NCBI GenBank assembly: GCA_050250915.1
Contig: JBFWNT010000018.1
Span: 6,591 to 70,590 of the forward strand
Origin: Thermoleophilia bacterium
GTDB taxonomy: Bacteria; Actinomycetota; Thermoleophilia; Miltoncostaeales; Miltoncostaeaceae
Direction of reading: 5' to 3'
Length of the DNA: 64,000 nt
Made by a program: the position numbers and the translations under genes. Below, piece by piece: positions 6,101 to 62,510 of this stretch. How positions within the stretch are numbered: position 1 is the first letter of the stretch; every line of letters starts with the position of its first letter. A model generated the notes under the pieces. It had not been told where the DNA came from, did not search any database, and was given only the letters and a program-made list of their open reading frames with translations.

Positions 6101-6795
6101 CCGCGCCCGTCGCGGCGCTGGCCCTGGCGGCCGCGCGGCGGGCCGTCGCCCGGGCCGCGGCGGAGGGCGGCGGCGCGCCGGAGCTGTCGCTCGACCGGCT
6201 CACGGCGTGGCTGGAGGACGACCCGGAGGCGCGGGCGGCGCTGGACGCGGCGGCCGCGGAGCGCAGCCGCCGCGAGGTCCCGGAGGTCGCCGCGGACACC
6301 GGCGCCGCCGCCGCGCGGCGCGCCCGCGCCGACGAGGTGCACCACGCGGTCCACGCCCTCCGGCTCATGGGCGAGCTGGCCGCCGAGGAGCCCGATCGCC
6401 TCCAGCTCCCCGGCTTCGGCCCGAGCACGTGGCGGGCGATCGCGATCCTGCGGCGGGGCGAGCCGGGCCCGGAGGCGGACTGGGCCGCCGCCGTGGCCGA
6501 CCTGCCGCTCCAGGACCTGGGCGACGAGGCCCCTCCCGGCCTGGCGCGGCCCGCCGACCCCCGCCTGGGCGAGGGCGCCCTGCGCCTGCTGGCGCTCGAG
6601 GCGCAGCGCCAGGACGTCCGCAACGCGCTCGTGACCGCGCAGTCCTGGCGGGCGGCGGCGGCGGAGCGCGGCAACGAGGCGGGCGTGCGGATGCAGGAGG
6701 AGGAGGCCGAGGCGCTCGAGCGGGCCCTGGCCGCCGCCGACGCCGCCATCGACACGATCTGGGACGACGGGGTCCGGGCCGCCGGTCAGGCCTGA
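6097..6795 (+). CDS. hypothetical alanine-rich helical protein
   Basis: GTGA overlap with previous stop; GC3-rich codon usage; no recognisable motif. Confidence 0.6.
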   Translation: MTAPVAALALAAARRAVARAAAEGGGAPELSLDRLTAWLEDDPEARAALDAAAAERSRREVPEVAADTGAAAARRARADEVHHAVHALRLMGELAAEEPDRLQLPGFGPSTWRAIAILRRGEPGPEADWAAAVADLPLQDLGDEAPPGLARPADPRLGEGALRLLALEAQRQDVRNALVTAQSWRAAAAERGNEAGVRMQEEEAEALERALAAADAAIDTIWDDGVRAAGQA

Positions 6796-30935: not shown

Positions 30936-31007
30936 TCCTCGGTAGCTCAATGGTAGAGCATCCGGCTGTTAACCGGAGGGTTGCAGGTTCGAGTCCTGCC
31001 CGAGGAG
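30936..31007 (+). tRNA. tRNA-Asn (GTT)
   Basis: Cloverleaf: TCCTCGG/CCGAGGA acceptor, GCTC/GAGC D-arm, TCCGG-CTGTTAA-CCGGA anticodon arm, GCAGG-TTCGAGT-CCTGC T-arm; CCA not encoded. Confidence 0.97.
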
Positions 31008-31008
31008 T
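30982..31008 (+). repeat. att core, left copy (3' end of tRNA-Asn)
   Basis: TGCAGGTTCGAGTCCTGCCCGAGGAGT, identical to 60647-60673. Confidence 0.95.
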
Positions 31009-31248: not shown

Positions 31249-32577
31249 ATGACTACGAACTCCGCCGAGTCTGGTCCCCGAGTGCGCACGGGACGCGCCG
31301 TCCTGCGTGCGTACATGAACCTTCGGGAGATGCCCCTGGGGCCGGCGACCGTCCCGCTCGATGCATCGCGTCGAGCCGGGCAGGCCATAGACCTGGCTCT
31401 CCGTATTCGCCGACACGGTCGGGTCTCGATCGAGGGCGCGGCAACCTTTGCCGCCCTCGCAGGCATCTCGGCTGCGGACCTTCGCCTCCTGGTCCTTCCG
31501 TTGCTCGAGCACGGAGGCATGGTGGCGCTCGAACGAGACGCCGCTGGTGGCGTTCGCGCGCTTGAGGAGCAAGTCGGCGTTGCCGCGCCAGTTCTGGAGC
31601 AGTGCTCGACAATCTGGGAAGCCGTTGGCCCGACGGACCTTGAGCGCTGCGCGATCCAGGCCTCTGACGAGATCTCCTACGCGCCCTACGCTCGAACGGA
31701 CCTTCAGACCCTGCTCGAAGTTGCCGGCCACCCAAGCGAGATACACGAGCAAGCCTTCGTGGTCCTTCGAGCGGTGGAACTCGCCCGTGTGGAGCGTTCA
31801 CCGAAGCTACGCGAGGATGTCTTCTTCAGCCCCTACGTCTGGGGCACAGAGGCGGTAGCGATCGCCGAGTTCCTAGCCGGTCTCCCGCCGAATGAACGCG
31901 CCGCCGTCGCGGCTATCGCCCGACAGGCGGCTGAGCGTCCCTGTGTTCCCGCCCGGCAGCTCGGCGTGCCCGAGAAGATGCTCAACGCAGCGCGCAAGAA
32001 CGGACTGATCGACCTGGCCACAGTCATGACTACGGGAGGCGATGAACGGCAGTTCAGCTTCCCTCCGGGGATGGACAGGCTGGTCGGTGCGCAGTCGACT
32101 GACGCTAACCATGAGCGGAAGCTCTTCACGGCACACATCCTGAACGGCCACCTGTATGGCTATTCCGGAACCGGACGCATCAGAGACCCGCTCGTGTTGG
32201 TCGACGCCCTCATCCGGAACGGAAGCGTGGGACCCGCGTCGGCGATCCGGACGGACTACCCGCTCTTGGAGTCCCACGGGATAGTGCGCGTCGAGAAGGT
32301 CGCGAACAGCAACCGCGCCTTCCTCCACCTGGTCAAGGAGGATGTCGCTCGCGACGCCCGTGACATCCTTTCCCTCGCCTTGGCCGATTCAGATCCCGAT
32401 CCCGGTGGGGACGACCCCATGAGCGCGTTCTGGCTCCCTGGGACCTTCGTGACGCCCGAGCGCAATCGGCAGCAACTCCCTGAGATCGCTGCCGGACCTG
32501 AGGCCGAGATCGTGACCAGTTTGGTTGAGGCACTGCGTGAAGACATTGGCCAGAAGATGCGCGGGGAGAAGGCCTGA
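31249..32577 (+). CDS. hypothetical protein (possibly tandem winged-helix); gene 1 of a candidate defence operon
   Basis: Long ORF with globular composition; start uncertain (31120/31141/31249); stop overlaps the next ATG (TGATG). Confidence 0.8.
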   Translation: MTTNSAESGPRVRTGRAVLRAYMNLREMPLGPATVPLDASRRAGQAIDLALRIRRHGRVSIEGAATFAALAGISAADLRLLVLPLLEHGGMVALERDAAGGVRALEEQVGVAAPVLEQCSTIWEAVGPTDLERCAIQASDEISYAPYARTDLQTLLEVAGHPSEIHEQAFVVLRAVELARVERSPKLREDVFFSPYVWGTEAVAIAEFLAGLPPNERAAVAAIARQAAERPCVPARQLGVPEKMLNAARKNGLIDLATVMTTGGDERQFSFPPGMDRLVGAQSTDANHERKLFTAHILNGHLYGYSGTGRIRDPLVLVDALIRNGSVGPASAIRTDYPLLESHGIVRVEKVANSNRAFLHLVKEDVARDARDILSLALADSDPDPGGDDPMSAFWLPGTFVTPERNRQQLPEIAAGPEAEIVTSLVEALREDIGQKMRGEKA

Positions 32578-33818
32578 TGGCTCCCACCGCCGGCGAGAGA
32601 TTTGAATGTCGGGTGGCGCGCCTCCTCGTCGCAGAGGGCGCCTTTGTCAGGCGGCGGGTCGATCTTCAGCGAAACTGGGGCGACCGCTTCACCATCACCG
32701 ACATCGACCTGTACGTCCTTCGCTTTACGCAACCTCTGCTCGTTCGCCTGTCGGTCGGGGAGTGCAAGACCACGGAGGCTAAGAGCGCACCGGGAATTCC
32801 GGACCGACTCCTTTGGGTTGCGGGCGTCCAACGACTTGTGCGCGCTGACGCAGCGTTCGTCGCTGTTCATCGTCCGGTCAACGCTCGAATGCGCCGTATG
32901 GCAGAGGAACTGGAGTGCCGAATCGTCGATGACCGCGACCTCTCGCGTCGCGAAGCGCTACTGGGCATAGGTGCCGAAGGGCCACCCTTCAGCCATGACG
33001 CTCGCCTTGTCGATCTCGAACACGCCGCTCGGAAGGACGCCAAACGCGAACCTGATCTCGATCGGGTCTACTGGTTCCTCCGGTCAGAGTTCTGGTTCTT
33101 GACGCCCGTGAGCGGCCTCAAGCGCAGCCTCGGCGCTATCCGACTGCTGAGCCGCCAGTGGTCGCCCGATCTCCCGAACCCAAGGCGCCAATGTGTGGAG
33201 TGGCTGACGTTCCACAGCATCGTCGCCTGTGTGGTCTCGCTGGTTCGAGTTGCTGGCGAGGCCTATCGCACCCCTGAGGACACCTTCACGGAACGCTTCT
33301 ACGAACAGCTTTCGGAGGGCAAGGCTGACTACGCGGCTATGGCCGAGATCTCCCAGCTGGTCGACGTTTACGTAACTCAGATCCTGACGGAGGCGGGGCT
33401 TCGTCCGGGCCAGGTTCTGGACGCCCTCGGCGCATTCGCCCCGAAGCCTCCGACCTACGCCGAGCCACTTGGCGAGGTTGTTCTGCGGCTCGCCGGAGCC
33501 CCGTTCGCAGCTGGCCGACTTCCGCAGTACGTCGACGAACTCGTCGCGCGAGAACTCCTATCCGTCGAGGAGCATGCTCAGGACGGCATCGGCGACGACG
33601 TTCCGTCCCGACTCTTCCGACTGGTCCTGGCATTCCTGAAAGGCCAGATTGGGCTGCCTGATCAGCTTGCCGCTCAGCTGCAGCCGTCCGGCGAATCGAA
33701 GCCGACCGAGGCTAAGCCGACGCCGGCCGACTCTGGTCGCGCGGGCTCGGTGCCGGTCCAGGCGCCGGAAGCCGAACCCCAGCTGTTCCAAGAGGAAGGC
33801 GCGTTCGAGGACACTTAG
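32577..33818 (+). CDS. PD-(D/E)xK (restriction-endonuclease-like) nuclease domain protein; gene 2 of a candidate defence operon
   Basis: GERFECRV (helix Glu)..TDIDLY..VGECKT (E-x-K), then ~250 aa helical C-terminal region. Confidence 0.75.
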   Translation: MAPTAGERFECRVARLLVAEGAFVRRRVDLQRNWGDRFTITDIDLYVLRFTQPLLVRLSVGECKTTEAKSAPGIPDRLLWVAGVQRLVRADAAFVAVHRPVNARMRRMAEELECRIVDDRDLSRREALLGIGAEGPPFSHDARLVDLEHAARKDAKREPDLDRVYWFLRSEFWFLTPVSGLKRSLGAIRLLSRQWSPDLPNPRRQCVEWLTFHSIVACVVSLVRVAGEAYRTPEDTFTERFYEQLSEGKADYAAMAEISQLVDVYVTQILTEAGLRPGQVLDALGAFAPKPPTYAEPLGEVVLRLAGAPFAAGRLPQYVDELVARELLSVEEHAQDGIGDDVPSRLFRLVLAFLKGQIGLPDQLAAQLQPSGESKPTEAKPTPADSGRAGSVPVQAPEAEPQLFQEEGAFEDT

Positions 33819-34183: not shown

Positions 34184-34879
34184 ATGATGGCTTGGAGGCC
34201 TGTGGCGATCGCCGCATCGATCCTGCTCGCCCTGGCCGGCACCGCAGTGGCGGCGCAGTTCACGGCCGACCAGTTCGACGGTGATGACGGTCCGAATCGC
34301 CTGACCGGCACGCCCGCGCCCGACACGATCAACGGCCGAGGGGGCAACGACCAGCTGCGCGGTCTCGCCAGTGGCGACCGCCTCCTGGGCAAGCGTGGCA
34401 ACGATCTGCTGGTCGGCGGCGCTGGGCCCGATCGACTGTTCGGTGGCGCGGGTGCGGATCAGCTGAAGGGTGGGCCGGCCAACGACATCCTGGACGGCGG
34501 CGACGGCTCTGATCGGATAGTCGGCGGTGGCGGCAACGACCTCGTCTTCGCCCGCGCCGGCAACGACCGCATCAACGTCCGCGACACCAAGCAAGACACG
34601 GTCTCCTGCGGCTCCGGCACCGACACGGTGAAGGCCGACCTCAAGGACCGGGTCAACTCCGATTGCGAGACGGTCCAGCGGCCGCAGCCGCCGAGGCCGG
34701 TGCCCGCCCCCTCCCCGGCGCCGCCGGCGCGGTCACAGCCGGGCTACTCGGACGTCTACAACTGCGACGACTTCCCACTGGCAGACGGCACCACCGCTCA
34801 GGACTACCTGAACCTCTACCCGAGCGACCCCTCCGGCCTGGACGGCAACGACAACGGGATCGCCTGCGAGAGCGACTGA
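34184..34879 (+). CDS. secreted RTX/hemolysin-type Ca-binding repeat protein with C-terminal Excalibur-like motif
   Basis: AAGGAG RBS, signal peptide, GGxGxDxL nonapeptides, DTVSCGSGTDTVKAD..DCE, NCDDF..LDGNDNGIACE. Confidence 0.88.
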   Translation: MMAWRPVAIAASILLALAGTAVAAQFTADQFDGDDGPNRLTGTPAPDTINGRGGNDQLRGLASGDRLLGKRGNDLLVGGAGPDRLFGGAGADQLKGGPANDILDGGDGSDRIVGGGGNDLVFARAGNDRINVRDTKQDTVSCGSGTDTVKADLKDRVNSDCETVQRPQPPRPVPAPSPAPPARSQPGYSDVYNCDDFPLADGTTAQDYLNLYPSDPSGLDGNDNGIACESD

Positions 34880-34938
34880 CGGCGGTGGCTCGCCCCGGAC
34901 GCCAGCCGGAACATCGAGGCCACACGCGGCCACGCTGG

Positions 34939-35703
34939 GTGCCGCTACTCCGGGGCGGGCTGCTCGCCGCGTGCCTCGCCTTTGCGACCCTCGCGGGAGC
35001 GTCACACGCGGCGGCGCTGACGCTGCGTGGGACGGTCTCCGATGTCGTCGACGGGGACACGATCAAGGTGATCTCCCGTGGGTTCGAAACCCCGGTCCGG
35101 CTGATCGGGATCGACACTCCCGAGACCCGGGCGCCAGGCAAGCCGGTGCAGTGCTTCGGGCCGGCGGCGAGCGCCCGAACGAAGCGACTGCTCCCTGTCG
35201 GCCAGAAGGTACGTCTGGTCACCGACCAGACCCAGGACACCCGTGACCGGTACGGCCGTCTTCTGGCCTATGTCTTCAAGGCCGGCCGATCCGGGGCGAC
35301 CGGTTCGGTCAACTACTCGCTGGTGCGCTCAGGCCACGCCAAGGTCTACGTCTACGGAGGCGTCCGCTTCCAGTACGCCGTGCCCTTCTTCAAGGCACAG
35401 AACCGAGCGAAGCGAGCCAAGCGCGGACTCTGGGGGCCGCCTTGCCGTGGCAACACGACCAAGGCGGATCCGAATCAGCCACCCTCCTCCCCCACCCCGC
35501 CAGCACCCGCGCCCGGTGAGCCGACCGATCCAAACCCAGCCGAGCCCCGGGCCGGATGCGATCCGAACTACACCGGCGCCTGCATCCCTCCCTACCCGCC
35601 AGACCTCGACTGCGGCGAGATCCCGGACCGCAACTTCCGAAGCGTCGGATCCGACCCGCACAACTTCGATGTCGATCACGACGGCATCGCCTGCGAGGAG
35701 TGA
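34939..35703 (+). CDS. secreted thermonuclease (SNase family) with C-terminal Excalibur-like motif
   Basis: Signal peptide; VVDGDTI, VRLIGIDTPE, DRYGRLLAYV, N..LVRSGHA; DLDCGEI..FDVDHDGIACE. GTG 34939 is the likely start. Confidence 0.9.
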   Translation: MPLLRGGLLAACLAFATLAGASHAAALTLRGTVSDVVDGDTIKVISRGFETPVRLIGIDTPETRAPGKPVQCFGPAASARTKRLLPVGQKVRLVTDQTQDTRDRYGRLLAYVFKAGRSGATGSVNYSLVRSGHAKVYVYGGVRFQYAVPFFKAQNRAKRAKRGLWGPPCRGNTTKADPNQPPSSPTPPAPAPGEPTDPNPAEPRAGCDPNYTGACIPPYPPDLDCGEIPDRNFRSVGSDPHNFDVDHDGIACEE

Positions 35704-47420: not shown

Positions 47421-48689
47421 CTACGTGAGCGCCCTCTTCACCTCGCGCCGGGAGAGGAAGTCGATGACGTCCTGGTAGCGGCCGGCGGTGTTTGCGAACT
47501 CGGCGTGGTTGCGCGCAGATAGCAGCCATTCGGCGGTGGTCGGTCGTGCCCGCGAGAGCGCTCGGCGCAGGTGGTCGTCGGAGACAGGAATGGTCGTCCC
47601 CGAGTTGATCGCCTCCTCGATCGCCAGGTCGACCGCCGACTCGACGAGGTGGGTGAGGTCGGCGCCGCTGAAGAGCGCTGTGGCCTCGGCCACGGGAACC
47701 ACGTCACCAACCTCGTGGGGGCGGCCGGCGAGGGCCAGCGACAGGAGGAAGCGGCGCGCCTCGAGATCGGGTGGTGGCACGAAGAGCTGCCGGTCGAAGC
47801 GGCCCGGGCGAAGCAGGGCGTCGTCTATGTCCCATGGTGTGTTGGACGCGGCGAGCACGAGCATGCCGTCGTTGGCGGAGTCCAGCCCGTCGAGCTCTTG
47901 GAGGAGCACCGTCACGAGTGCGCGGCCGTCCGCCCCGGCGCGCCGGGAGCGCGAGAAGGCGAATGCGTCGATCTCGTCGATGAAGACGACGCATGGGGCC
48001 GCGGCCCGTGCCTGCTCGAACGCGTCGTGGAGGGCGCGCTCGCTCTCGCCCATGTAGGGCGAGAGGATCTCCTCGATGCGGATCTGGCGGAAGGGAACAC
48101 CGCACTCGCCTGCGGTGGCGCGAGCGAGGAGGGTCTTGCCGCAGCCGGGAGGTCCGTAAAGCAGCAGGCCGGCTCCTGCGCGCCGGCCGTATGACGCGTA
48201 GAGGTCGGGTCGGGTGAAGGGGAGGATGATCGCGCGCTCGATCGCCTGCTTCGGCTCCTCGTTGCCGGCGACCTGGGCGAAATGGATCTCCTCGCGCTCG
48301 GCCCGAGGTCGCTCAACCGGATGTTCAGCCGCCGCGGAGCGGAGCGCGTCGAGCTCCCCGTCGGCTGGTCGGCGCGCGAGATCGGCGTCGGCCAGCAGTT
48401 GCCGGAGCCGGTCGCGCACCGGACCGAGCGCCGGGTCGCCGGAGGCGGCGCCGTCGACCAGGCGACCGGCGACCTCGAGGTCACCGAGGTCGATGGCGAG
48501 CTGTGCGGCGAGCGCGCGCTGGGCAGCCGACAGCGCCCCCCGGCCGTCGGCCTGGAGGAAGGCCTCGAGCGACTCCGCCCGCCGGCCGAGGTCGGCCAGC
48601 AAGTCGCCCAGCAGGCCGATGAGGACTCCATTTGCGGGGTCCGCGGCGAGCGCCCCGCGCAGCGCCGTGATGCGGGGGTCTTCACTCAC
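47421..48689 (-). CDS. TPR-like domain + AAA ATPase (classic clade)
   Basis: GPPGCGKT, VVFIDEIDA, ASNTPWDID.ALLRPGRFD; GTG 48689 overlaps the upstream stop. Confidence 0.92.
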   Translation of the reverse strand: MSEDPRITALRGALAADPANGVLIGLLGDLLADLGRRAESLEAFLQADGRGALSAAQRALAAQLAIDLGDLEVAGRLVDGAASGDPALGPVRDRLRQLLADADLARRPADGELDALRSAAAEHPVERPRAEREEIHFAQVAGNEEPKQAIERAIILPFTRPDLYASYGRRAGAGLLLYGPPGCGKTLLARATAGECGVPFRQIRIEEILSPYMGESERALHDAFEQARAAAPCVVFIDEIDAFAFSRSRRAGADGRALVTVLLQELDGLDSANDGMLVLAASNTPWDIDDALLRPGRFDRQLFVPPPDLEARRFLLSLALAGRPHEVGDVVPVAEATALFSGADLTHLVESAVDLAIEEAINSGTTIPVSDDHLRRALSRARPTTAEWLLSARNHAEFANTAGRYQDVIDFLSRREVKRALT

Positions 48690-49561
48690 GTTCGCTCTCG
48701 TCGGGCGAGGATGCGAGGCCAGAAGCGGCCGTAGGCCCACAGGAGCGCCACGGCTGCGAAGCCCCCGATGGGCAGGAATCCGGCCGCCGTCGTCCCGATG
48801 GCGAAGGCGGTCACCCAGGGCCACGCCCCGAGCCAGTCCCGGCGGTGCATCTGGCGGATGAGCCAGGTGGAGCGGCGATCGAGTCGCCGCAGCTCGCGGG
48901 CGTGGTCCGTGATCTCTCTGTCTCCCGGCCGTCCTCGCGCCGCAGACACCGCCGCGTCCCGTGCCTCCTCGAAGCGCCCTTCGGAGAGGGCGCGATGAGA
49001 GTGCATGTGAAGCGCGCCCGGATTCTCCGGATCGGCGGCGAGCAGTGTGGCGAGGTGCCGATCGAGCTCCTTCGCCTTCGCCCCCGCCGCCGCCGCGAGC
49101 GCGACCTTCAGCCCGAGCAACGTGGGCTCATCGGGTGCCTGCCGCAGGGCGCGGTCGAGCATGTCCGAGGCGTGCTCGTGCTCACCGCCGCGGCTGAGGA
49201 TCATCGCGTAGGTCGCAAGCGCCTGCGGATGGTCGGGGAACTCATGAAGCAGCCAGCGGGCGATGTCCTCCGCCTCGGCGAGACGCCCGAGCTCGGCGAG
49301 CAGCTCTGCTCGGAGCTGAAGGAACTCGGGCTCATGTGGCCATATCGCCAGCGCGCGGGCGGTGCCATCAAGCGCCCGCGCGGCCTCGCCACAGCTCCAC
49401 ACCGCGCGGATCCGCATGTCCCACCACTCCGGGCGGGCGCTCGCCTGCCTGTCGGCGCGGACGATCTCGTCCAGCTCGCCAAGCGCGAGGCGTCCATCGC
49501 CACGCGCGAGGTGACGCCCCGCCTTCTGCAGGCCGAGGTCGAATCCGATGGCCGGGCTCAC
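48686..49561 (-). CDS. TPR-repeat protein with C-terminal TM helices
   Basis: Repeated ALAxxPxx helical pairs; GTG 49561 overlaps the upstream stop. Confidence 0.82.
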   Translation of the reverse strand: MSPAIGFDLGLQKAGRHLARGDGRLALGELDEIVRADRQASARPEWWDMRIRAVWSCGEAARALDGTARALAIWPHEPEFLQLRAELLAELGRLAEAEDIARWLLHEFPDHPQALATYAMILSRGGEHEHASDMLDRALRQAPDEPTLLGLKVALAAAAGAKAKELDRHLATLLAADPENPGALHMHSHRALSEGRFEEARDAAVSAARGRPGDREITDHARELRRLDRRSTWLIRQMHRRDWLGAWPWVTAFAIGTTAAGFLPIGGFAAVALLWAYGRFWPRILARRERT

Positions 49562-50094
49562 AGGTGCTCCTTTAGCGCCTCGCCAAGTGCGAGCAGCGGC
49601 CAGAGCACGGCCAAGTCCAGGGCAACCCCGGCGAACATCGGGATCAAGAGGAACACGAACCCGCCCCGCGACTCGCCACCCCACTCATGGAGGGTGCGGT
49701 AGGCGCCCGTCACCGCCTGCCCGAACGTCGCGTGCAGGACGAGGCCCGCGAGAACCGGGGCGACGACCAGCACCATGAACCTGGCGATGTCGTACCCGTC
49801 GCCGTGGGTCGTCACGAAGAACGGCGTCAGAAACGCAAGGCCACCGAGCAGGGCAAGCAGGACGCAAGTCGTCCGCGCGATCCGCAGACGAACCTTTGCG
49901 GGAAGCGGTAGCGACGGCAGCACCCGGCGGTTCAGCAGCGCCGACAGCGGGAGCCCGCCGAGCATCCAGGTGCACTGGACCCAGCCGAGATCGACCGGGC
50001 GCCGCTCGTAGAGGCGACGGCCGCGCCAATGCGCGAGGAGCGGCTGATCCGGCATCGGCCGGGGCGTCGTGTTCGAGCGGTCGGTCGCAGGCAC
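49558..50094 (-). CDS. hypothetical multi-pass membrane protein
   Basis: Three to four hydrophobic segments; translationally coupled to the TPR gene. Confidence 0.65.
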   Translation of the reverse strand: MPATDRSNTTPRPMPDQPLLAHWRGRRLYERRPVDLGWVQCTWMLGGLPLSALLNRRVLPSLPLPAKVRLRIARTTCVLLALLGGLAFLTPFFVTTHGDGYDIARFMVLVVAPVLAGLVLHATFGQAVTGAYRTLHEWGGESRGGFVFLLIPMFAGVALDLAVLWPLLALGEALKEHL

Positions 50095-53706: not shown

Positions 53707-56700
53707 ATGCCAGTTCGAGTGCCCACTCCGAGACCCAGCTGCAGCGGCGTCGCCTGGCTTGAGACCGATGAAGGCTTCCTTGACGCGGTCCTCGCCGCCT
53801 CCGCGAGTGGTCAGGTAGAGAGCTGGATCCATGGAGCGGATTCTCGGGATCGGGAGCCCTCCGAGGCCCCGAGCGCGGAGCGTCTCGTCGCCCGTGCAGT
53901 CGTATCGATCCTGCTGAGGCGCCCCCTCCCCGGGTTCAACCCGCTTCTGTCCTGGCACGCCGGCCCCGGTCACCCAGGAGCGCACGACGGGCTCGCACAG
54001 GTGAGCGAGCCGCTGAGCTACAGGGAGGTGGGGCGCCTCATCTGGACTGGGGTGGTGACCGACGGACCCGCCGGGCGTCGCCGCGAACGACCGGTAGCCT
54101 CGTTTGGCTACCCGGTGGTGCGACGCCGCGAGAAACGAGCGGCCGGGCCGAGCACGCATCGACAATCATGGGGTGCGGACCCGAAGGCCATCGTGAGCGA
54201 GGCGCCACGCGCGCCCCGGCGTCGCCCTGGGCGAGGCGGCCGCCAACCGCGGGTCTCTGCCTTCACGGAGGCGACGGCAACCGCCCAGCTTCGCGCGGAG
54301 ATCGGCGAGCCAACGGTCGGCGAGCGCCGCCAAGGAACCGGCTTCATGTACTGGCGACTCTCAGAGAGCGGCAGCGGGTTCGCGCTCGCACGCCTGTCGG
54401 GCGACGAGATTCGAAAAGGGGAAAGCGCGCTGAGCCAGGTCCAAGCAATCTGGCACACGGCCTCCCAGTTCGAACTCAAGCTCGGCCATCTCGTGGTCAC
54501 CACCAACAGCACGGGAGCCCGACGCTTCGAGTACCGGCCTGATCTCCTGCTCCTCCACGAGCTGATCGCCAACGGAGAGGTTGACGCGGTGTGTGCGCGT
54601 GGCGTGGACCGCATCCACCGAAACGACCTGGTCCGAGCCCAGCTCGAGGATCTGTTCATCAGCAGCGGGACACAGCTCTACCTGTCCCAGTTCGGGCACC
54701 TCGACTGGATACGCGATCTCCACTACTGGCGGCGCAAGAGCAACCAGGCCGAGGAAGAGCGCGACGACATCTTCAGCCGGACCCACGGCGGGATGATCGC
54801 GACCCGCCTCGCGGAGGGGCGCGGACGCCCCGGCGCGCTTCCCTTTGGCTTCTACTACAACCCCGAGTGCGGCGAGGTCGTCGTCGATCCCGAGCAGTGG
54901 CCGTTTGTTGTGATCGTCCACCGCGGCTACGAGGAACTGCATGAGGAGGGCGCGACAGGGGGCCTACGACGCCTCGAGGAGAAACTCGAGGCACTCGGGT
55001 GCCCGATGTCGGTCGGAATGATCGCGAACATGCTGCGCAACCCGATCTACGTCACCGGCGAATACACGGTCTCCTGGAACGGGCGGCAGGTCACGGCAAA
55101 CCCGATCAAGATCGCGGCGCCGATCCCGCTGGAGCTCTTCCAGCGCAACCAGGAGCGGCTCGCCCTGAACACGGGCCGACACAGCGTTACCCCTGTCGGG
55201 TTCCTCGCTCTGAATGGAGTCGAGGTCATCCACGACCGTTGCCAAGACCTCCCCGTCGCGAAGGAAGACGCCGCGAAGTTGCCCCGGACATGCACGTCCC
55301 TGGTGCTGCGCGGCAGGCCCACGAGCAGCGCGGACGGTTACGTCTACAGCCACTACCCACGCACCCCCGGGAGCTGCCGCGGGATGGTCATCCCGCAGAA
55401 CGTGCTCGAGCCCACAGTGATGCGGGCCCTTCGCCAGCTTGCCGCCAATCGCGAGCTTCAGGAGCAGTGGCGACGAGCTCCGCGTGGCGATCCAGCCGAG
55501 CGGCCACGGATCCTCAGCCCTGAGGCACGCACCCAGGTGGAGTCGGAGCTGCGGGACCTGGGACTGCTCATCGAACACCGCGAGGCGCGTTGGAGCGACC
55601 CGAAGCATCCTGACTCGCAGATGACCGCGAGCGAGTTCTCGAAGATCATCTCCCCTCTCCATGAGAAGCGGGAGCGGCTGAAGCGGCGCCTCAGAATGGA
55701 CGACGTCCTTGACCCCACGCCTCCGGTCACGCCGCTGGAGAAGGACATGGGCGCGATCGCGCGCGCGGCCGGACTCGACGACGAGAGCACCTACGGGGAA
55801 CTGCTTGAGAAGCTCGAGGAGGTCCTCACGGACGAACCACCGGATGACCCTGATCACCTGCGCCGGAGGGCAGCGGTGGTCAAGGCCTCCCTGAGCTCCA
55901 TCCTGATCAAGGACGCGCCCGATGGCTTCACCCTCGAGCTCAGGGGTCCGCTGGTCCCGCCGGGAACGAAGGTCGTTGGTCCGATCGGCCCGATCGCCTC
56001 CGATGGGGGAGCCCTGAAGCCCACCTCCTCCCCGCGTCGCCCGCCATCCGAACTGTCAAGCACGTCCTGGCGTGATGGACAGTTCCAAGATGACGAGGAG
56101 CCGCTCGATCACCGGATGGTGACCACGACCTACTGGTCCACGCCGGCGGCGCAGCGGCCTAAGCCCCTCAGGCCGAAGAGGATTGCGCGGCGACCTCGGC
56201 TCGACTGGACTCCCCTCTGGGTGTCCACACCCATCTCCTTGCCCTGCCCGGACGCCTCACGCCCACCGGAGGCCACCCCGCGCGAGCCGTGGTCGTCCTC
56301 GGATCAGGACGTCGCGAAGGAGGCTATCCGCGTCTCCATTCGGTTCACGGGCCGTGGTTGTGGGTTCAACGAGACGACCTACGCTCGGGTCCGCAGGGCG
56401 CATCCGGAGTTGCCGACGTACGCTTTCGTCGAGCGCGCTCGCCGGAACAGCTGGAAGAGCTGGCCCATCTTTGTCGGTGAGGCGATCGGCGAGGAGATCA
56501 ACGACCTGCCGCTCACGGACCTCGCGCGGGATAGGCGCGAGCTGTTGAGGCTGCGCAGCGCCGCAAGGACTGGAGCCCTCCGCACTGTGAAGTGGGGCTC
56601 GTTCCACTACACGCGCCAAGAATGGGTGGATGAGTTCAGGCCGAAGCTGCTCCGCCCCCGATCTCGGGGACCGTCGGGTCCCCCGCCTCCCTCTCGACCG

Positions 56701-56727
56701 CCCCTTCGAGGGCGCCCAAAGAGGTAG
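53707..56727 (+). CDS. large serine recombinase with N- and C-terminal extensions
   Basis: YWRLS (catalytic Ser), RPDL..GVDRIHRN, LPFGFY, MLRNPIYV..APIPLELFQ (Recombinase domain), coiled coil. True start may lie nearer 54250-54346. Confidence 0.85.
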   Translation: MPVRVPTPRPSCSGVAWLETDEGFLDAVLAASASGQVESWIHGADSRDREPSEAPSAERLVARAVVSILLRRPLPGFNPLLSWHAGPGHPGAHDGLAQVSEPLSYREVGRLIWTGVVTDGPAGRRRERPVASFGYPVVRRREKRAAGPSTHRQSWGADPKAIVSEAPRAPRRRPGRGGRQPRVSAFTEATATAQLRAEIGEPTVGERRQGTGFMYWRLSESGSGFALARLSGDEIRKGESALSQVQAIWHTASQFELKLGHLVVTTNSTGARRFEYRPDLLLLHELIANGEVDAVCARGVDRIHRNDLVRAQLEDLFISSGTQLYLSQFGHLDWIRDLHYWRRKSNQAEEERDDIFSRTHGGMIATRLAEGRGRPGALPFGFYYNPECGEVVVDPEQWPFVVIVHRGYEELHEEGATGGLRRLEEKLEALGCPMSVGMIANMLRNPIYVTGEYTVSWNGRQVTANPIKIAAPIPLELFQRNQERLALNTGRHSVTPVGFLALNGVEVIHDRCQDLPVAKEDAAKLPRTCTSLVLRGRPTSSADGYVYSHYPRTPGSCRGMVIPQNVLEPTVMRALRQLAANRELQEQWRRAPRGDPAERPRILSPEARTQVESELRDLGLLIEHREARWSDPKHPDSQMTASEFSKIISPLHEKRERLKRRLRMDDVLDPTPPVTPLEKDMGAIARAAGLDDESTYGELLEKLEEVLTDEPPDDPDHLRRRAAVVKASLSSILIKDAPDGFTLELRGPLVPPGTKVVGPIGPIASDGGALKPTSSPRRPPSELSSTSWRDGQFQDDEEPLDHRMVTTTYWSTPAAQRPKPLRPKRIARRPRLDWTPLWVSTPISLPCPDASRPPEATPREPWSSSDQDVAKEAIRVSIRFTGRGCGFNETTYARVRRAHPELPTYAFVERARRNSWKSWPIFVGEAIGEEINDLPLTDLARDRRELLRLRSAARTGALRTVKWGSFHYTRQEWVDEFRPKLLRPRSRGPSGPPPPSRPPLRGRPKR

Positions 56728-58880: not shown

Positions 58881-60098
58881 TCACGTCGTCCGCCGATCAC
58901 GGCCCTCATCGAAGAAGCGGATCACGTCCTCGCGAAGGATGACGAGAGGCGCGACCGGCTCGTTGGGAAGCACGTGGGCGTAGACCCGATGAAGACTGGT
59001 GAGGTTCGAATGGCCTGCGATGTCCCGGACCATCGCGTCGGGCACGTTGGCGGCCAGCAGGCGTGAGAGGAAGCGGTGGCGCAGGTCGTGGGGGCCGATC
59101 GTGCTCGGCAGGCCGGCGGCCTTGCTCGCCCTCATCATCGCCTTGTAGATGCTGTTGTGAGTGAGGGGGCCTCCGGTCCTCGGGTGAGGAAAGAGCAGTC
59201 GTTGGCCTCGGGACGGCGAGAGGTCGAGGAGAGGGATCAGCGGTGCGAGTTCCCGGGTGATCGGGATGAACCGGTGTCCGGCGGTCCCGCCCTTGGTCCT
59301 CGGGATCCAGATGCGCCCCCTGGCGACGTCGACGTCAGCACGTCGGATGCCCTTCAGCTCGCAGAAGCGGACCCCCGTGAGGGCCATGAACATCACCGGC
59401 TTCAGATGGGGGCTCGGCAAGGTTCGGCCAGGGCGATTGCGCAGGTGCTCGAGCATCGCCTCGACCTCCGCGTGTGTCGGGCAGACGGAGCCGGCCGCAC
59501 CGTCCTCATGGATCTCGCTCGCGGCGGGCCCTCGTGCCTTCTTCGCCCAGCGTAGGTTGCGGCTGTCGGCGGGGTTCGGCTCGATGTCGAAGCGGCCAAG
59601 CGCACTGCGGTACTGGCCGAAGTACTGAGCGCGAGTGCTCGGCGCAAGGTGCAGGTTGGCAAGGTGCCAAGCCTGCAAGTCCTGCCAGCGCATCTCTTCG
59701 ATGAAGATCGAGCCGAGCTCGCCGAGGTTGGCGATACCGTTCCTCCAGTTGCGCACCGTCTCCGGGGCCAGACCCACTCGCCTCTCCTCAAGCGTCTGCT
59801 CAAGGGCTTGGAGCAGGGGCGTCCCGACTGCCTTGATGGGTTCGCGCGGATCCTCACCGGCCGCGAGCCGGAGGCGGATCGCGTCCCGACGAGCCTTGGC
59901 CTCGCGCATGGTGGAGAAGGTGCCGCCCGTGAGCGGCTTGCTCCCCCGACCGCCCACGCGGTAGCGGACCACGTAGCGGACGTCAGTCAGCGGCTCGGAC
60001 CTGCCCGCCTGGGGCCGGCCCGTCCGGGCGGTCAGGCCGCGGGTGACCCACTTGCCGCTCGGGTCCTTGCCCCTTGTGAGGATGTGTGCGGAGCCCAT
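58881..60098 (-). CDS. tyrosine integrase
   Basis: TGVRFCEL (R), TKGG (K), HDLRH (HxxR), AGHSN (H), RVYAH (Y); ATG 60098 overlaps the Xis-like stop. Confidence 0.95.
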   Translation of the reverse strand: MGSAHILTRGKDPSGKWVTRGLTARTGRPQAGRSEPLTDVRYVVRYRVGGRGSKPLTGGTFSTMREAKARRDAIRLRLAAGEDPREPIKAVGTPLLQALEQTLEERRVGLAPETVRNWRNGIANLGELGSIFIEEMRWQDLQAWHLANLHLAPSTRAQYFGQYRSALGRFDIEPNPADSRNLRWAKKARGPAASEIHEDGAAGSVCPTHAEVEAMLEHLRNRPGRTLPSPHLKPVMFMALTGVRFCELKGIRRADVDVARGRIWIPRTKGGTAGHRFIPITRELAPLIPLLDLSPSRGQRLLFPHPRTGGPLTHNSIYKAMMRASKAAGLPSTIGPHDLRHRFLSRLLAANVPDAMVRDIAGHSNLTSLHRVYAHVLPNEPVAPLVILREDVIRFFDEGRDRRTT

Positions 60099-60322
60099 CA
60101 GCGGGCCTCCGGCTGGGTCTCGCAACTCCGGATGAAGGCGAGCACCTCGTCGCGGTAGGCGTAGACCTTGCGCAGGCCGGGGATCCGCACGAGCGTGACG
60201 CAGCGGAAGATCCGCTCCGCAGTGGCCTCTGCGACCCCGAGCTCGTCCCGCATCCGGCGCTGGTCGATCAGCGTCGGCAGAGGCGGCAGGGCCTCCTCGA
60301 TCGTGACTGCCGTATCTGTCAT
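60098..60322 (-). CDS. excisionase-like small DNA-binding protein
   Basis: 74 aa, LIDQRRMRDELGVAEATAERIF..RKVYAYRDEV, coupled to the integrase; AAGGAG RBS. Confidence 0.7.
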   Translation of the reverse strand: MTDTAVTIEEALPPLPTLIDQRRMRDELGVAEATAERIFRCVTLVRIPGLRKVYAYRDEVLAFIRSCETQPEAR

Positions 60323-60646
60323 GGCGGCTCCTTCGCCGTCGTCCGCGGGGTGGGATCAGTCCCTTCACCCCCTTGCGATTGCGAACGTACGACGCCCTTC
60401 GGCGACCGCTTGCAGCTAGCCGAAAGTCGGCCCGGACGGGCCGCCAGGCGCGCTTGGTCTCCCCTCCCACGAGGCGAGAAACAGGTGCCCCGTGGGCCTG
60501 CCTGACTAGGGTCGGCGCATGGACTACCCCGCCCCCTCAAGCCCCGCCAAGCCCCGCTGGCGTGATGTCCCAGTGTGTCCCCGGCCGTGCGTGGTCCTTC
60601 CGGGAAACTTCCCGGATGCAGGGGAAACAGAGAGCTCCGACGAGTC

Positions 60647-60673
60647 TGCAGGTTCGAGTCCTGCCCGAGGAGT
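60647..60673 (+). repeat. att core, right copy (displaced tRNA-Asn 3' fragment)
   Basis: Exact 27-bp copy of 30982-31008. Confidence 0.95.
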
Positions 60674-60860: not shown

Positions 60861-62510
60861 ATGCGTGACCCCCGGACCCACGACATCGTGGACGATCGCG
60901 GCGGGCGGCCCCCGGTGAGCCGGGGGCGGCCCCGGCGGTGGGCGCGCGACGCGGGTCTGGTCGCCATCGCGGCGCTCGCCGCGCTGCCGGCCGCCGCGGA
61001 GGGCGCCGCCCGGGTCTACTGGACGAACGACGCCGGCAACTCGATCGGCTTCGCCAACCTCGCCGGCGAGGGCGCGGGGAACGTGCCGATCGGCGGGGCC
61101 ACGCTCTCCGGCCCGCAGGGGATGGCGATCGACCCTGCCGCCGGGCGGCTCTACTGGGCCAACTACGACGGCAACAAGATCTCGTTCGCCAACCTCGACG
61201 GCACGGGCGGCGGCGACCTGCGCACCGCCGGCGCCACCGTGGCCTCGCCGTACGGCGTCGCGATCGACCCGGCGGGCGGGCGGATCTACTGGGCCAACGC
61301 CCCCGGCGGCGGCGGCAGCCGGATCTCGTTCGCCGCGCTCGACGGAAGCGGCGGGGGCGACCTCAACACGGCGGGGGCGACCGCGCTGAGCAATCCGCTG
61401 GGTGTGGCCGTCGACCCGGCGGGCGGGCGGGTCTACTGGGCCAACTACGGCGCCGGGAAGATCTCCTTCGCCCGCCTCGACGGCAGCGGCGGCGCCGACA
61501 TCCCCACGGCGGGCGCCACGGTCAACGGTCCCGCCGGAGTCGCGCTCGACCCCGGCACGGGGCGGATCTACTGGGCGAATCTCAACGGCGACACGATCTC
61601 GTTCGCGGCCCTGGACGGCACGGGTGGCGGCGACCTCCCCACCGCGGGGGCCACGGTCAATGACCCCGAGGGGGTCGCGATCGACCCCGAGGCGAGGACC
61701 GTCTACTGGGCCAACTACGGCGCACCGGCCATCTCGTTCGCCCGTCTCGACGGGAGCGGCGGCGGCAACGTGGTGACGACCGGCGCAACCGTGAGCGAGG
61801 CCGGGTTCCCCGCGCTGCTCGTCCCACCCGCGGCGGCGGGCGCCCCCGCGATCACGGGCGCCGGTCCCCCCGGCTCGGTGCTGTCCTGCACCGCCGGCTC
61901 CTGGGCCCCGGACGTGTCAGGCGCGTTCCTCTACCGGGCGCCCCGGGCGCTCCAGCACCGGTGGAGCCGGGACGGCGCGGAGATCGCCGGCGCAACCGCG
62001 CCGACCTACATCGCGCTCGCAGCCGGCGAATACCGCTGCATCGTCAGTGCCTCGAACGCGGCGGGAGAGGCGTCGCAGACCAGCACGCCCGTGCGTGTCC
62101 AGCCATCACCGCCGCGCACCTTCGGCCCCCGGACCCTGGTTGCGCTGAGGCTGGCGCCGAGCCGCATCGGACCGAGGGGGCCGGTGAGGCTGGTGGTGCT
62201 CAACCGCAACCCCTTCCCCGTCCGGGGCAGGATCACCGGGACGACGGTCCGCCGCCTCACACCGGGCCCCCGAGCCCGGCGCGTCGCCCTGCGCCCCGCG
62301 CGTTTCCGGCTCGAGGCCGGCGCGAGGGCCACCGTCGCCGTGGCGCTGCCACGGGCACTGCGGCGGCCGTTCGCGCGGGCCGGACGCCTCCCGCTGCGGC
62401 TGAGCATGCGTCTGACGGACCCGGCCGGGGTCGCGCGCTCCGTCAGGGCGACGGTGGTGCCGAGGCTGCGGCCCGCCCCGCCCCGTGACGGGCGCCTGCC
62501 GCCGGCCTGA
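60861..62510 (+). CDS. secreted six-blade YWTD-like beta-propeller protein with Ig-like domain
   Basis: Six ~44-aa repeats (YWAN..ISFA.LDG.GGGDL.TAGATV..P.GVAIDP), then LSCTAGSW..Y.C and an Arg-rich tail. Confidence 0.85.
   Translation: MRDPRTHDIVDDRGGRPPVSRGRPRRWARDAGLVAIAALAALPAAAEGAARVYWTNDAGNSIGFANLAGEGAGNVPIGGATLSGPQGMAIDPAAGRLYWANYDGNKISFANLDGTGGGDLRTAGATVASPYGVAIDPAGGRIYWANAPGGGGSRISFAALDGSGGGDLNTAGATALSNPLGVAVDPAGGRVYWANYGAGKISFARLDGSGGADIPTAGATVNGPAGVALDPGTGRIYWANLNGDTISFAALDGTGGGDLPTAGATVNDPEGVAIDPEARTVYWANYGAPAISFARLDGSGGGNVVTTGATVSEAGFPALLVPPAAAGAPAITGAGPPGSVLSCTAGSWAPDVSGAFLYRAPRALQHRWSRDGAEIAGATAPTYIALAAGEYRCIVSASNAAGEASQTSTPVRVQPSPPRTFGPRTLVALRLAPSRIGPRGPVRLVVLNRNPFPVRGRITGTTVRRLTPGPRARRVALRPARFRLEAGARATVAVALPRALRRPFARAGRLPLRLSMRLTDPAGVARSVRATVVPRLRPAPPRDGRLPPA

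Follow-up and report, generated by a model that had tools for sequence, protein, structure and literature searches.

The question raised by this locus is whether two coupled genes of a Thermoleophilia bacterium (Actinomycetota; Miltoncostaeales; Miltoncostaeaceae; GenBank assembly GCA_050250915.1, contig JBFWNT010000018.1) encode an antiphage system that has so far gone undescribed. The whole stretch of DNA that was analysed, 64,000 nucleotides in length (positions 6,591 to 70,590 of the forward strand), is referred to below as the window. An initial annotation made from the sequence had taken the protein of the first gene (gene 1) for a sensor or scaffold and that of the second (gene 2) for a PD-(D/E)xK nuclease effector. 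The pair is uncharacterised in every library searched, and a nuclease-based defence module with gene 1 as its sensor or regulatory scaffold is the reading preferred here, with a probability of about 60%. As a possible new defence system the pair makes a sound candidate, though no more than that; such candidates are numerous.

Hidden Markov models prepared from both family alignments were run on all open reading frames (ORFs) of each fetched locus. Gene 2 stands directly after gene 1 in 33 loci from Actinomycetota, Chloroflexota, Bacillota and Vibrio, and the co-occurrence of homologues on which the initial annotation had made its defence claim depend was thereby found. The order gene 1 to gene 2 was recorded in 21 of the 22 loci derived from homologues, in four distant genomes from a 400-genome sample of the phylum, and in all eight loci from plasmid or virus collections (seven plasmids, one IMG/VR contig). 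At one locus (L010, 2269-5272) a fragment of gene 1 runs in frame into approximately 640 residues of RHS/YD-repeat and Hint-like sequence with no gene 2 after it; interpretation as a domain swap, with gene 1 fused to another effector, was rejected, and the junction looks like the product of a rearrangement. The pairwise identities of the two proteins are closely correlated over 28 loci (r = 0.96, Spearman 0.90). In the fetched loci the pair has no conserved third gene to its left or right, and no conserved methyltransferase partner. The pair is an obligate two-protein module.

For the protein of gene 2, a signature resembling that of restriction endonucleases (E..TDID..ECK) followed by a long helical domain had been read from the sequence, and both parts were recovered in an AlphaFold2 (AF2) model computed from a 36-sequence alignment (predicted local distance difference test (pLDDT) 88.5, predicted template modelling score 0.85). 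The restriction-endonuclease fold is present in the model as a core composed of the elements H5-19, E23-28, E43-50, E56-64, H74-87 and E92-97 (pLDDT 82-97); helix 1 bears E10, D42 and D44 mark the beginning of strand 2, and strand 3 contains E62-x-K64. These five residues are invariant in the 36 sequences. The E, D-x-D and (E/D)-x-K positions are kept in 13 distant copies from four phyla, and the catalytic set is retained in Lentzea, Nocardioides, Arthrobacter, Chloroflexota, distant Actinomycetota, Clostridium perfringens, Bacillus mycoides and Vibrio parahaemolyticus. Foldseek searches of the PDB returned AF1548 (1y88), Cdn1, VC1899, Can2, Card1, AspBHI, SfsA and EndoMS with probabilities of 0.8-1.0; the values were 0.97-1.0 for AF1548, Cdn1, Card1, Can2, VC1899 and AspBHI, and reached 1.0 for the nuclease domains of AF1548, Cdn1, Card1 and Can2. 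All these alignments are confined to the N-terminal 90-156 residues. Within the protein, the nuclease domain is basic (isoelectric point (pI) 9.85) and the remainder acidic. No Foldseek match and no PDB sequence match were obtained for the helical domain. The last 45 residues are disordered and variable in the alignment, with pLDDT below 50 at 387-396, 398-403 and 405-413. By its modelled fold and its catalytic motif, gene 2 is a predicted nuclease of the PD-(D/E)xK superfamily, and a credible active one.

The protein of gene 1 had been noted for several segments resembling helix-turn-helix motifs or wings (LLEHGGMV, KNGLIDL and LESHGIVRV). In an AF2 model computed from 55 sequences (pLDDT 90.8), each of them coincides with the point where a predicted winged helix passes from helix to wing, the first at residues 85-92, and four winged helices (wH1-wH4) were found in total (residues ~58-107, 130-193, 214-271 and 314-361), preceded by two basic N-terminal helices and followed by acidic C-terminal helices. 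The pI of the window copy is 5.5 and the median for the family is 5.75; the acidity is clear in wH1 and wH2, and wH3 and wH4 are close to neutral. Foldseek returned generic proteins with multiple winged helices only (RPC62, TFIIH p52, UFL1, ScpB and MarR in the PDB, with BFVD equally uninformative), and the scores were weak (E at or above 0.017, template modelling (TM) score 0.13-0.19 on the query). Seventy homologues were collected. The motif HERKLFVAHILxGH stands out in the close family and was weighed as a possible active site, but the Bacillota and distant actinobacterial copies do not conserve it, and the idea was rejected. The positions kept across phyla (P, G, DY..LE..G, E..R and LR) are mainly structural and are located in wH4, in the C-terminal helices and around them; no universally conserved residues of catalytic type and no NTPase motif were found. 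Because the motif is lost in distant copies and the surviving positions are mainly structural, gene 1 is read as non-enzymatic.

The pair is rare, accessory and horizontally mobile. The genome of the window carries one copy, 40 relatives (18 of them from the same genus) carry none, and it was found in 5 of 400 further genomes from the phylum. Among 1.84 billion representative proteins, the gene 1 profile matched 475 clusters (50% identity), and most of the full-length clusters among the matches listed measure 415-450 amino acids (aa) and were matched end to end. Named hosts of the pair include Gaiellaceae, Chloroflexota, Lentzea, Nocardioides, Arthrobacter, Actinoplanes, Rhodococcus, Leucobacter, Marmoricola, Kribbella, Kineosporia and Streptosporangiaceae. 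It is also carried by 19 plasmids, with hosts in Streptomyces, Rhodococcus, Pseudarthrobacter, Paenarthrobacter, Rubrobacter, Bacillus mycoides, Clostridium perfringens and Vibrio parahaemolyticus. No match was obtained in 50,697 phage records. A transfer RNA (tRNA) gene stands directly beside the pair in the window (tRNA-Asn), at L003 (tRNA-Met, upstream) and at L001 (tRNA-Ala, downstream). In Nocardioides the pair is located within an integrative and conjugative element (ICE) that has a TrwC relaxase-primase and a TraG-type coupling protein of the type IV secretion system (T4CP); in Actinoplanes it comes directly after TnsB and TniQ of a Tn7-like element; and in the Rhodococcus plasmid pRZP5 it is placed between the T4CP and a MobF relaxase.

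In three actinobacterial ICEs (L012, 7888-9845; L013, 7888-9845; L018, 7863-9831) a divergent gene with HTH_3 and Peptidase_M78 domains (ImmA/IrrE type) is found directly upstream, together with an uncharacterised gene of approximately 265 aa in the same divergent upstream pair, and a Pseudarthrobacter plasmid (L041, 7287-7943) likewise has an ImmA/IrrE gene directly upstream. These genes could have a regulatory link to the pair or could merely belong to the regulation of the ICEs.

The neighbours of the homologues bear on function. Gabija is a neighbour in three loci; GajA/GajB adjoins the pair in Nocardioides and probably also in Marmoricola. Lamassu is represented by LmuB adjoining the pair in Lentzea and by LmuA/LmuB in Kineosporia. 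At L003 the pair is adjoined by an AAA ATPase with an S8 peptidase (Iet-like) and by an integrase; at L005 by P4 cII and a Beta protein, with a deaminase and PycTM also present; and at L021 by IetS, a UvrD-like helicase and a type III methyltransferase. Type II/IIG methyltransferases are found near the pair in Arthrobacter and Kribbella. In a Bacillus mycoides plasmid (L039, 5920-12990) an ABC-three-component (ABC-3C) system, the pair, and Thoeris ThsB/ThsA follow one another in a compact defence island bounded by recombinases and a Tn3 transposase. On the linear Rhodococcus plasmid pLP414 the pair is situated at the plasmid end beside genes of the Beta, sce7726 and Abi families; this locus led to the rejection of a role as replication initiators for the distant plasmid homologues that lie close to record starts. 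Homologues occur on mobile elements and, at a share of the loci, in defence islands, the setting that the initial annotation had required of a defence role.

On the preferred reading, the pair would guard the host, or the mobile element that carries it, against DNA entering from outside, such as that of phages or rival elements. Translational coupling would supply the two proteins in matched amounts. Gene 2 would be the effector, a metal-dependent PD-(D/E)xK nuclease that cuts nucleic acid with its basic N-terminal domain, and its acidic helical domain may serve in assembly or regulation. Gene 1 would be a non-enzymatic scaffold of four winged helices that binds gene 2 and licenses cutting, either by recognising a phage protein or some unusual feature of the DNA as its trigger, or by aiming the nuclease. 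Here we infer the physical complex, the trigger and the substrate, and likewise the mode of action: abortive infection, with indiscriminate cutting after sensing, and direct restriction of foreign DNA are about evenly balanced. The acidity of the winged helices tilts the balance slightly towards the sensing of a protein. A more specific version, in which a new, cross-phylum class of innate immune module uses an acidic four-winged-helix array that does not bind DNA (kite- or RPC62-like) for sensing infection, probably through a phage protein, and gates a Can2/Card1-like nuclease via the helical domain without second messenger, NTPase or methyltransferase, is tentative and less likely than not.

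Several points weigh against assigning a defence role to the pair. The argument is one of guilt by association, and the immediate neighbours in the window itself (RTX/Excalibur, staphylococcal nuclease and extracytoplasmic function (ECF) sigma cassettes) include no recognised defence system. A complete named system lies directly adjacent in approximately 8 of 24 non-redundant loci, a raw count without matched background, and any defence or restriction-modification (R-M) gene within approximately 6 kb in about 12 of 24, a count from partial annotation and again without background; the enrichment is therefore suggestive and not measured. One IMG/VR contig that carries the pair is putatively viral. 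The Foldseek E-values for gene 2 are weak (0.0095 to about 1) and the coverage amounts to only ~135 residues. The acidic or neutral character of the winged helices makes direct reading of DNA by gene 1 doubtful, and its conserved residues indicate no particular mechanism. Finally, the PADLOC release that was used dates from 2023.

The next alternative is a stabilisation module of the addiction or toxin-antitoxin (TA) type, in which gene 2 would be the toxin and gene 1 the antitoxin and winged-helix autoregulator, and loss of the element would kill the cell. Antitoxins are usually encoded first and are translationally coupled to the toxin; the gene order and the one-nucleotide overlap of the pair resemble type II/IV TA operons, and carriage on plasmids, ICEs and islands would also suit such a module. 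One winged helix of gene 1 gave a match to AbiEi_4 (E = 0.2), the sole profile match listed for either protein, although its 12.3 bits are far under the Pfam cut-off of 25 bits. Both proteins are, however, four to five times the size of typical TA proteins, and in three independent lineages gene 1 has been broken and the ORF of gene 2 remains intact, its catalytic residues included. The first is represented by L003, in which gene 1 carries a 1-nt frameshift; the identical 2673-bp sequence was found in L004, from a separately assembled sample. The second is L021, with a frameshift in gene 1. In the third, the Vibrio plasmid pHZ52-3, an IS5 insertion interrupts gene 1, and gene 2 still has D-x-D and D-x-K; similar partial gene 1 matches were obtained for three further Vibrio plasmids. 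Such losses would be lethal if gene 1 were the antidote, and a role as sensor, adaptor or activator therefore fits better than that of an essential antidote. The weight of this argument is modest; the intact gene 2 ORFs could be silent. An addiction module is considered unlikely.

It was next considered that the pair may already bear a name, as a system published after 2023 or one contained only in DefenseFinder; this possibility overlaps with the defence reading preferred here. The initial annotation could match the pair to no named system, and the searches gave the same result: neither protein was matched by Pfam, NCBIfam, PADLOC v2.0.0 (including the PDC and HEC candidates) or PHROGs. With a listing threshold of E <= 1 for PADLOC, Pfam and NCBIfam, PADLOC yielded 0 families for either protein. 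Ten distant relatives of gene 1 contained no Pfam domain, two distant pairs had no match in PHROGs, and a profile of the gene 2 family had none among PDB sequences; a match of the gene 1 profile to a glutathione S-transferase in the PDB sequences (E = 0.45) was set aside as chance. Homologues are named 'hypothetical protein' by NCBI and JGI; as an exception, a single copy of gene 2 in RefSeq bears the label 'response regulator transcription factor', for which no support was found in the analysis. Six RefSeq accessions of homologues had no mention in the literature searched. Dozens of systems have been published after PADLOC v2.0.0, and this leaves a small chance that the pair is among them. 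A preprint from 2025 validated six systems of actinobacteria (Ceres, Geb, Veles, Prithvi and Ukko, as well as Oshun), of which Ceres, Veles and Oshun are not described in its text; those that are described are metabolic enzymes or a single 150-aa protein (10.1101/2025.01.08.631966).

The weakest alternative is a DNA-processing accessory of mobile elements that would act in the resolution of recombination intermediates, in end processing or in integration or transfer, and not in immunity. The E...D...ExK pattern is shared with Hjc-type resolvases and NucS/EndoMS (EndoMS being a weak Foldseek match to gene 2, rank 44), tandem winged-helix proteins include Rep initiators (a weak BFVD match), and the positions in the Rhodococcus plasmid, between T4CP and relaxase, and behind TniQ would suit such a function; it is nevertheless improbable, since the carriers are unrelated (tyrosine-integrase islands, TrwC ICEs, Tn7-like elements, linear and circular plasmids, in four phyla), most elements of each type lack the pair, and it has no fixed position relative to element core genes and keeps company with cargo and defence genes rather than with the cores for replication or transfer.

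The coordinates of the locus are collated in the table below. The window DNA has a GC content of approximately 75%, and the 29.7 kb between the two attachment-site (att) repeats are lower (63-72%). Because these 27-nt repeats and the integrase delimit a 29.7-kb island, the pair is the first cargo inside attL, the position it had been given beforehand; attL consists of the last 26 bases of tRNA-Asn and one more base, and attR is adjoined by an HTH_3 protein as well as by the tyrosine integrase. The coupling of the two genes by TGATG also held: the gene 1 stop codon TGA (32575-32577) and the gene 2 start codon ATG (32577-32579) share one A. A codon usage unlike that of core genes had been noted, and the GC contents at third codon positions are indeed 0.75 (gene 1) and 0.72 (gene 2), as against 0.90-0.98 in three neighbouring core genes.

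Features of the locus (window coordinates; residue numbers refer to the respective protein)
Feature	Position	Strand	Basis or remark
tRNA-Asn (GTT), integration target of the island	30936..31007	+	ARAGORN
attL, 27-nt direct repeat at the tRNA 3' end	30982..31008	.	exact match to 60647-60673
Gene 1, 442 aa	31249..32577	+	ORF; alternative start 31120
Gene 1, wH1	31420-31569	+	AF2
Gene 1, wH2	31636-31827	+	AF2
Gene 1, wH3	31888-32061	+	AF2
Gene 1, wH4	32188-32331	+	AF2
Purine-rich, Shine-Dalgarno-like GGGGAGAAGG	32563..32572	+	within the end of gene 1, 4 nt before the gene 2 ATG
Gene 2, nuclease gene	32577..33818	+	ORF
Gene 2, nuclease domain, residues 1-118	32577..32930	+	AF2, alpha-beta-beta-beta-alpha-beta core
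Gene 2, candidate catalytic residues	E10 32604-32606, D42 32700-32702, D44 32706-32708, E62 32760-32762, K64 32766-32768	+	alignment
Gene 2, all-helical domain, residues 119-368 (250 residues)	32931..33680	+	AF2
Gene 2, acidic low-confidence tail and stop	33681..33818	+	pLDDT 42-58
Tyrosine integrase, adjoins attR	58884..60470	-	Pfam Phage_integrase 3e-24 and Arm-DNA-bind_3
attR, second copy of the 27-nt repeat	60647..60673	.	exact repeat

Automatic gene calling gave shorter products for both genes (415 aa with start 31330 for gene 1, 401 aa with start 32613 for gene 2). Homologues of gene 1 start 10-35 residues ahead of a conserved GRAVLRxYxNL block and those of gene 2 a few residues ahead of the invariant E10; the starts of the initial annotation were preferred because the automatic ones cut into these regions. 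A scan of the locus for promoters and terminators gave no usable signal. For the empty-site comparison, the right flank was followed in 18 congeners; its gene (60861-62510) contains four diverged copies of a 252-nt unit with a spacing of 135 or 282 nt and is not conserved in the genus. The comparison gave no answer because this gene is repetitive and poorly conserved.

Two genes come directly 3' of the pair (34184-35703). The product of one looks secreted and has RTX repeats and an Excalibur domain; that of the other is a staphylococcal-nuclease homologue ending in a proline-rich tail and an Excalibur-like end. The other contents of the island include ECF sigma cassettes, a helix-turn-helix nucleotidyltransferase and a large serine recombinase. 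This last is a protein of 1006 aa with a serine-recombinase (Resolvase) domain (53707-56727, plus strand); as it is present besides the tyrosine integrase, the island may be composite. An AAA ATPase (467 aa) adjoining a TPR protein is also encoded inside the island (47424-49684, minus strand).

If the pair does protect against phages or plasmids, it would represent a new defence family with two domains that lack described relatives, namely the architecture of gene 1 and the helical domain of gene 2. The family spans Actinomycetota, Chloroflexota, Bacillota and Vibrio plasmids, and the first two phyla are poorly covered by defence screens that use E. coli and Bacillus. Control of a nuclease through a winged-helix scaffold, with neither ATPase nor signalling nucleotide, would follow a new and simple logic. 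For work in B. subtilis, the Bacillus mycoides copy between Thoeris and ABC-3C offers a tractable entry point.

Among known systems, classical type II R-M had been excluded at the outset for want of a cognate methyltransferase, and a Pfam scan of the 20 island ORFs returned none; methyltransferases occur near only some of the homologous loci and are of differing types. AbiE, which consists of the winged helix-turn-helix antitoxin AbiEi and the nucleotidyltransferase AbiEii, differs in its second component, as gene 2 has a nuclease fold and not that of a nucleotidyltransferase. Gene 1, an acidic chain of tandem winged helices, resembles Kite-type and other tandem winged-helix scaffolds (ScpB, MukE/JetB, MAGE/Nse3, RPC62 and TFIIH p52), and its structural matches are of this kind only, but no SMC or kleisin partner is conserved beside the pair.

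Gabija (GajA/GajB), Hachiman (HamA/HamB) and Septu (PtuA/PtuB) resemble the pair as compact operons of a nuclease and a partner, and like it are rare, patchily distributed, and located on mobile elements among other systems. Their partners are ATPases or helicases, whereas gene 1 has no NTPase motif, and the PADLOC models of Gabija, Hachiman and Septu matched neither protein; Gabija is a neighbour of the pair and no relative. Type IV restriction enzymes join winged-helix readers to cutters with the restriction-endonuclease fold, for example in DpnI and HhiV4I (PMC11037411). Together with Mrr and AspBHI, these enzymes share with the pair a PD-(D/E)xK cutter and winged helices without a cognate methyltransferase, and AspBHI was matched to gene 2 by Foldseek with a probability of 0.99. 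In type IV enzymes, however, a single chain holds both nuclease and reader, the latter consisting of one DNA-binding winged helix or an SRA-like domain, whereas the pair has four mostly acidic winged helices in a separate 442-aa protein; the Mrr_cat and Mrr_N profiles gave no match in Pfam and NCBIfam (E <= 1).

The best structural matches to residues 1-135 of gene 2 are the nuclease domains of Can2, Card1, Cdn1, VC1899/DUF1887 and AF1548, with TM scores on the target of up to 0.48, sequence identities of 13-22% and no profile match. In Can2, Card1 and Cdn1 a CARF or SAVED domain binds cyclic oligoadenylates and gates the nuclease, and the loci are found near type III CRISPR systems. Gene 2 differs in its all-helical C-terminal domain, its separate winged-helix partner and the absence of a CRISPR context; residues 119-368 contain no Rossmann-like CARF in the AF2 model, and the Foldseek alignments cover 90-143 columns. 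Gene 2 shares the PD-(D/E)xK core with Can2, Card1 and Cdn1; these act as effectors in immunity, the role that is proposed here for gene 2.

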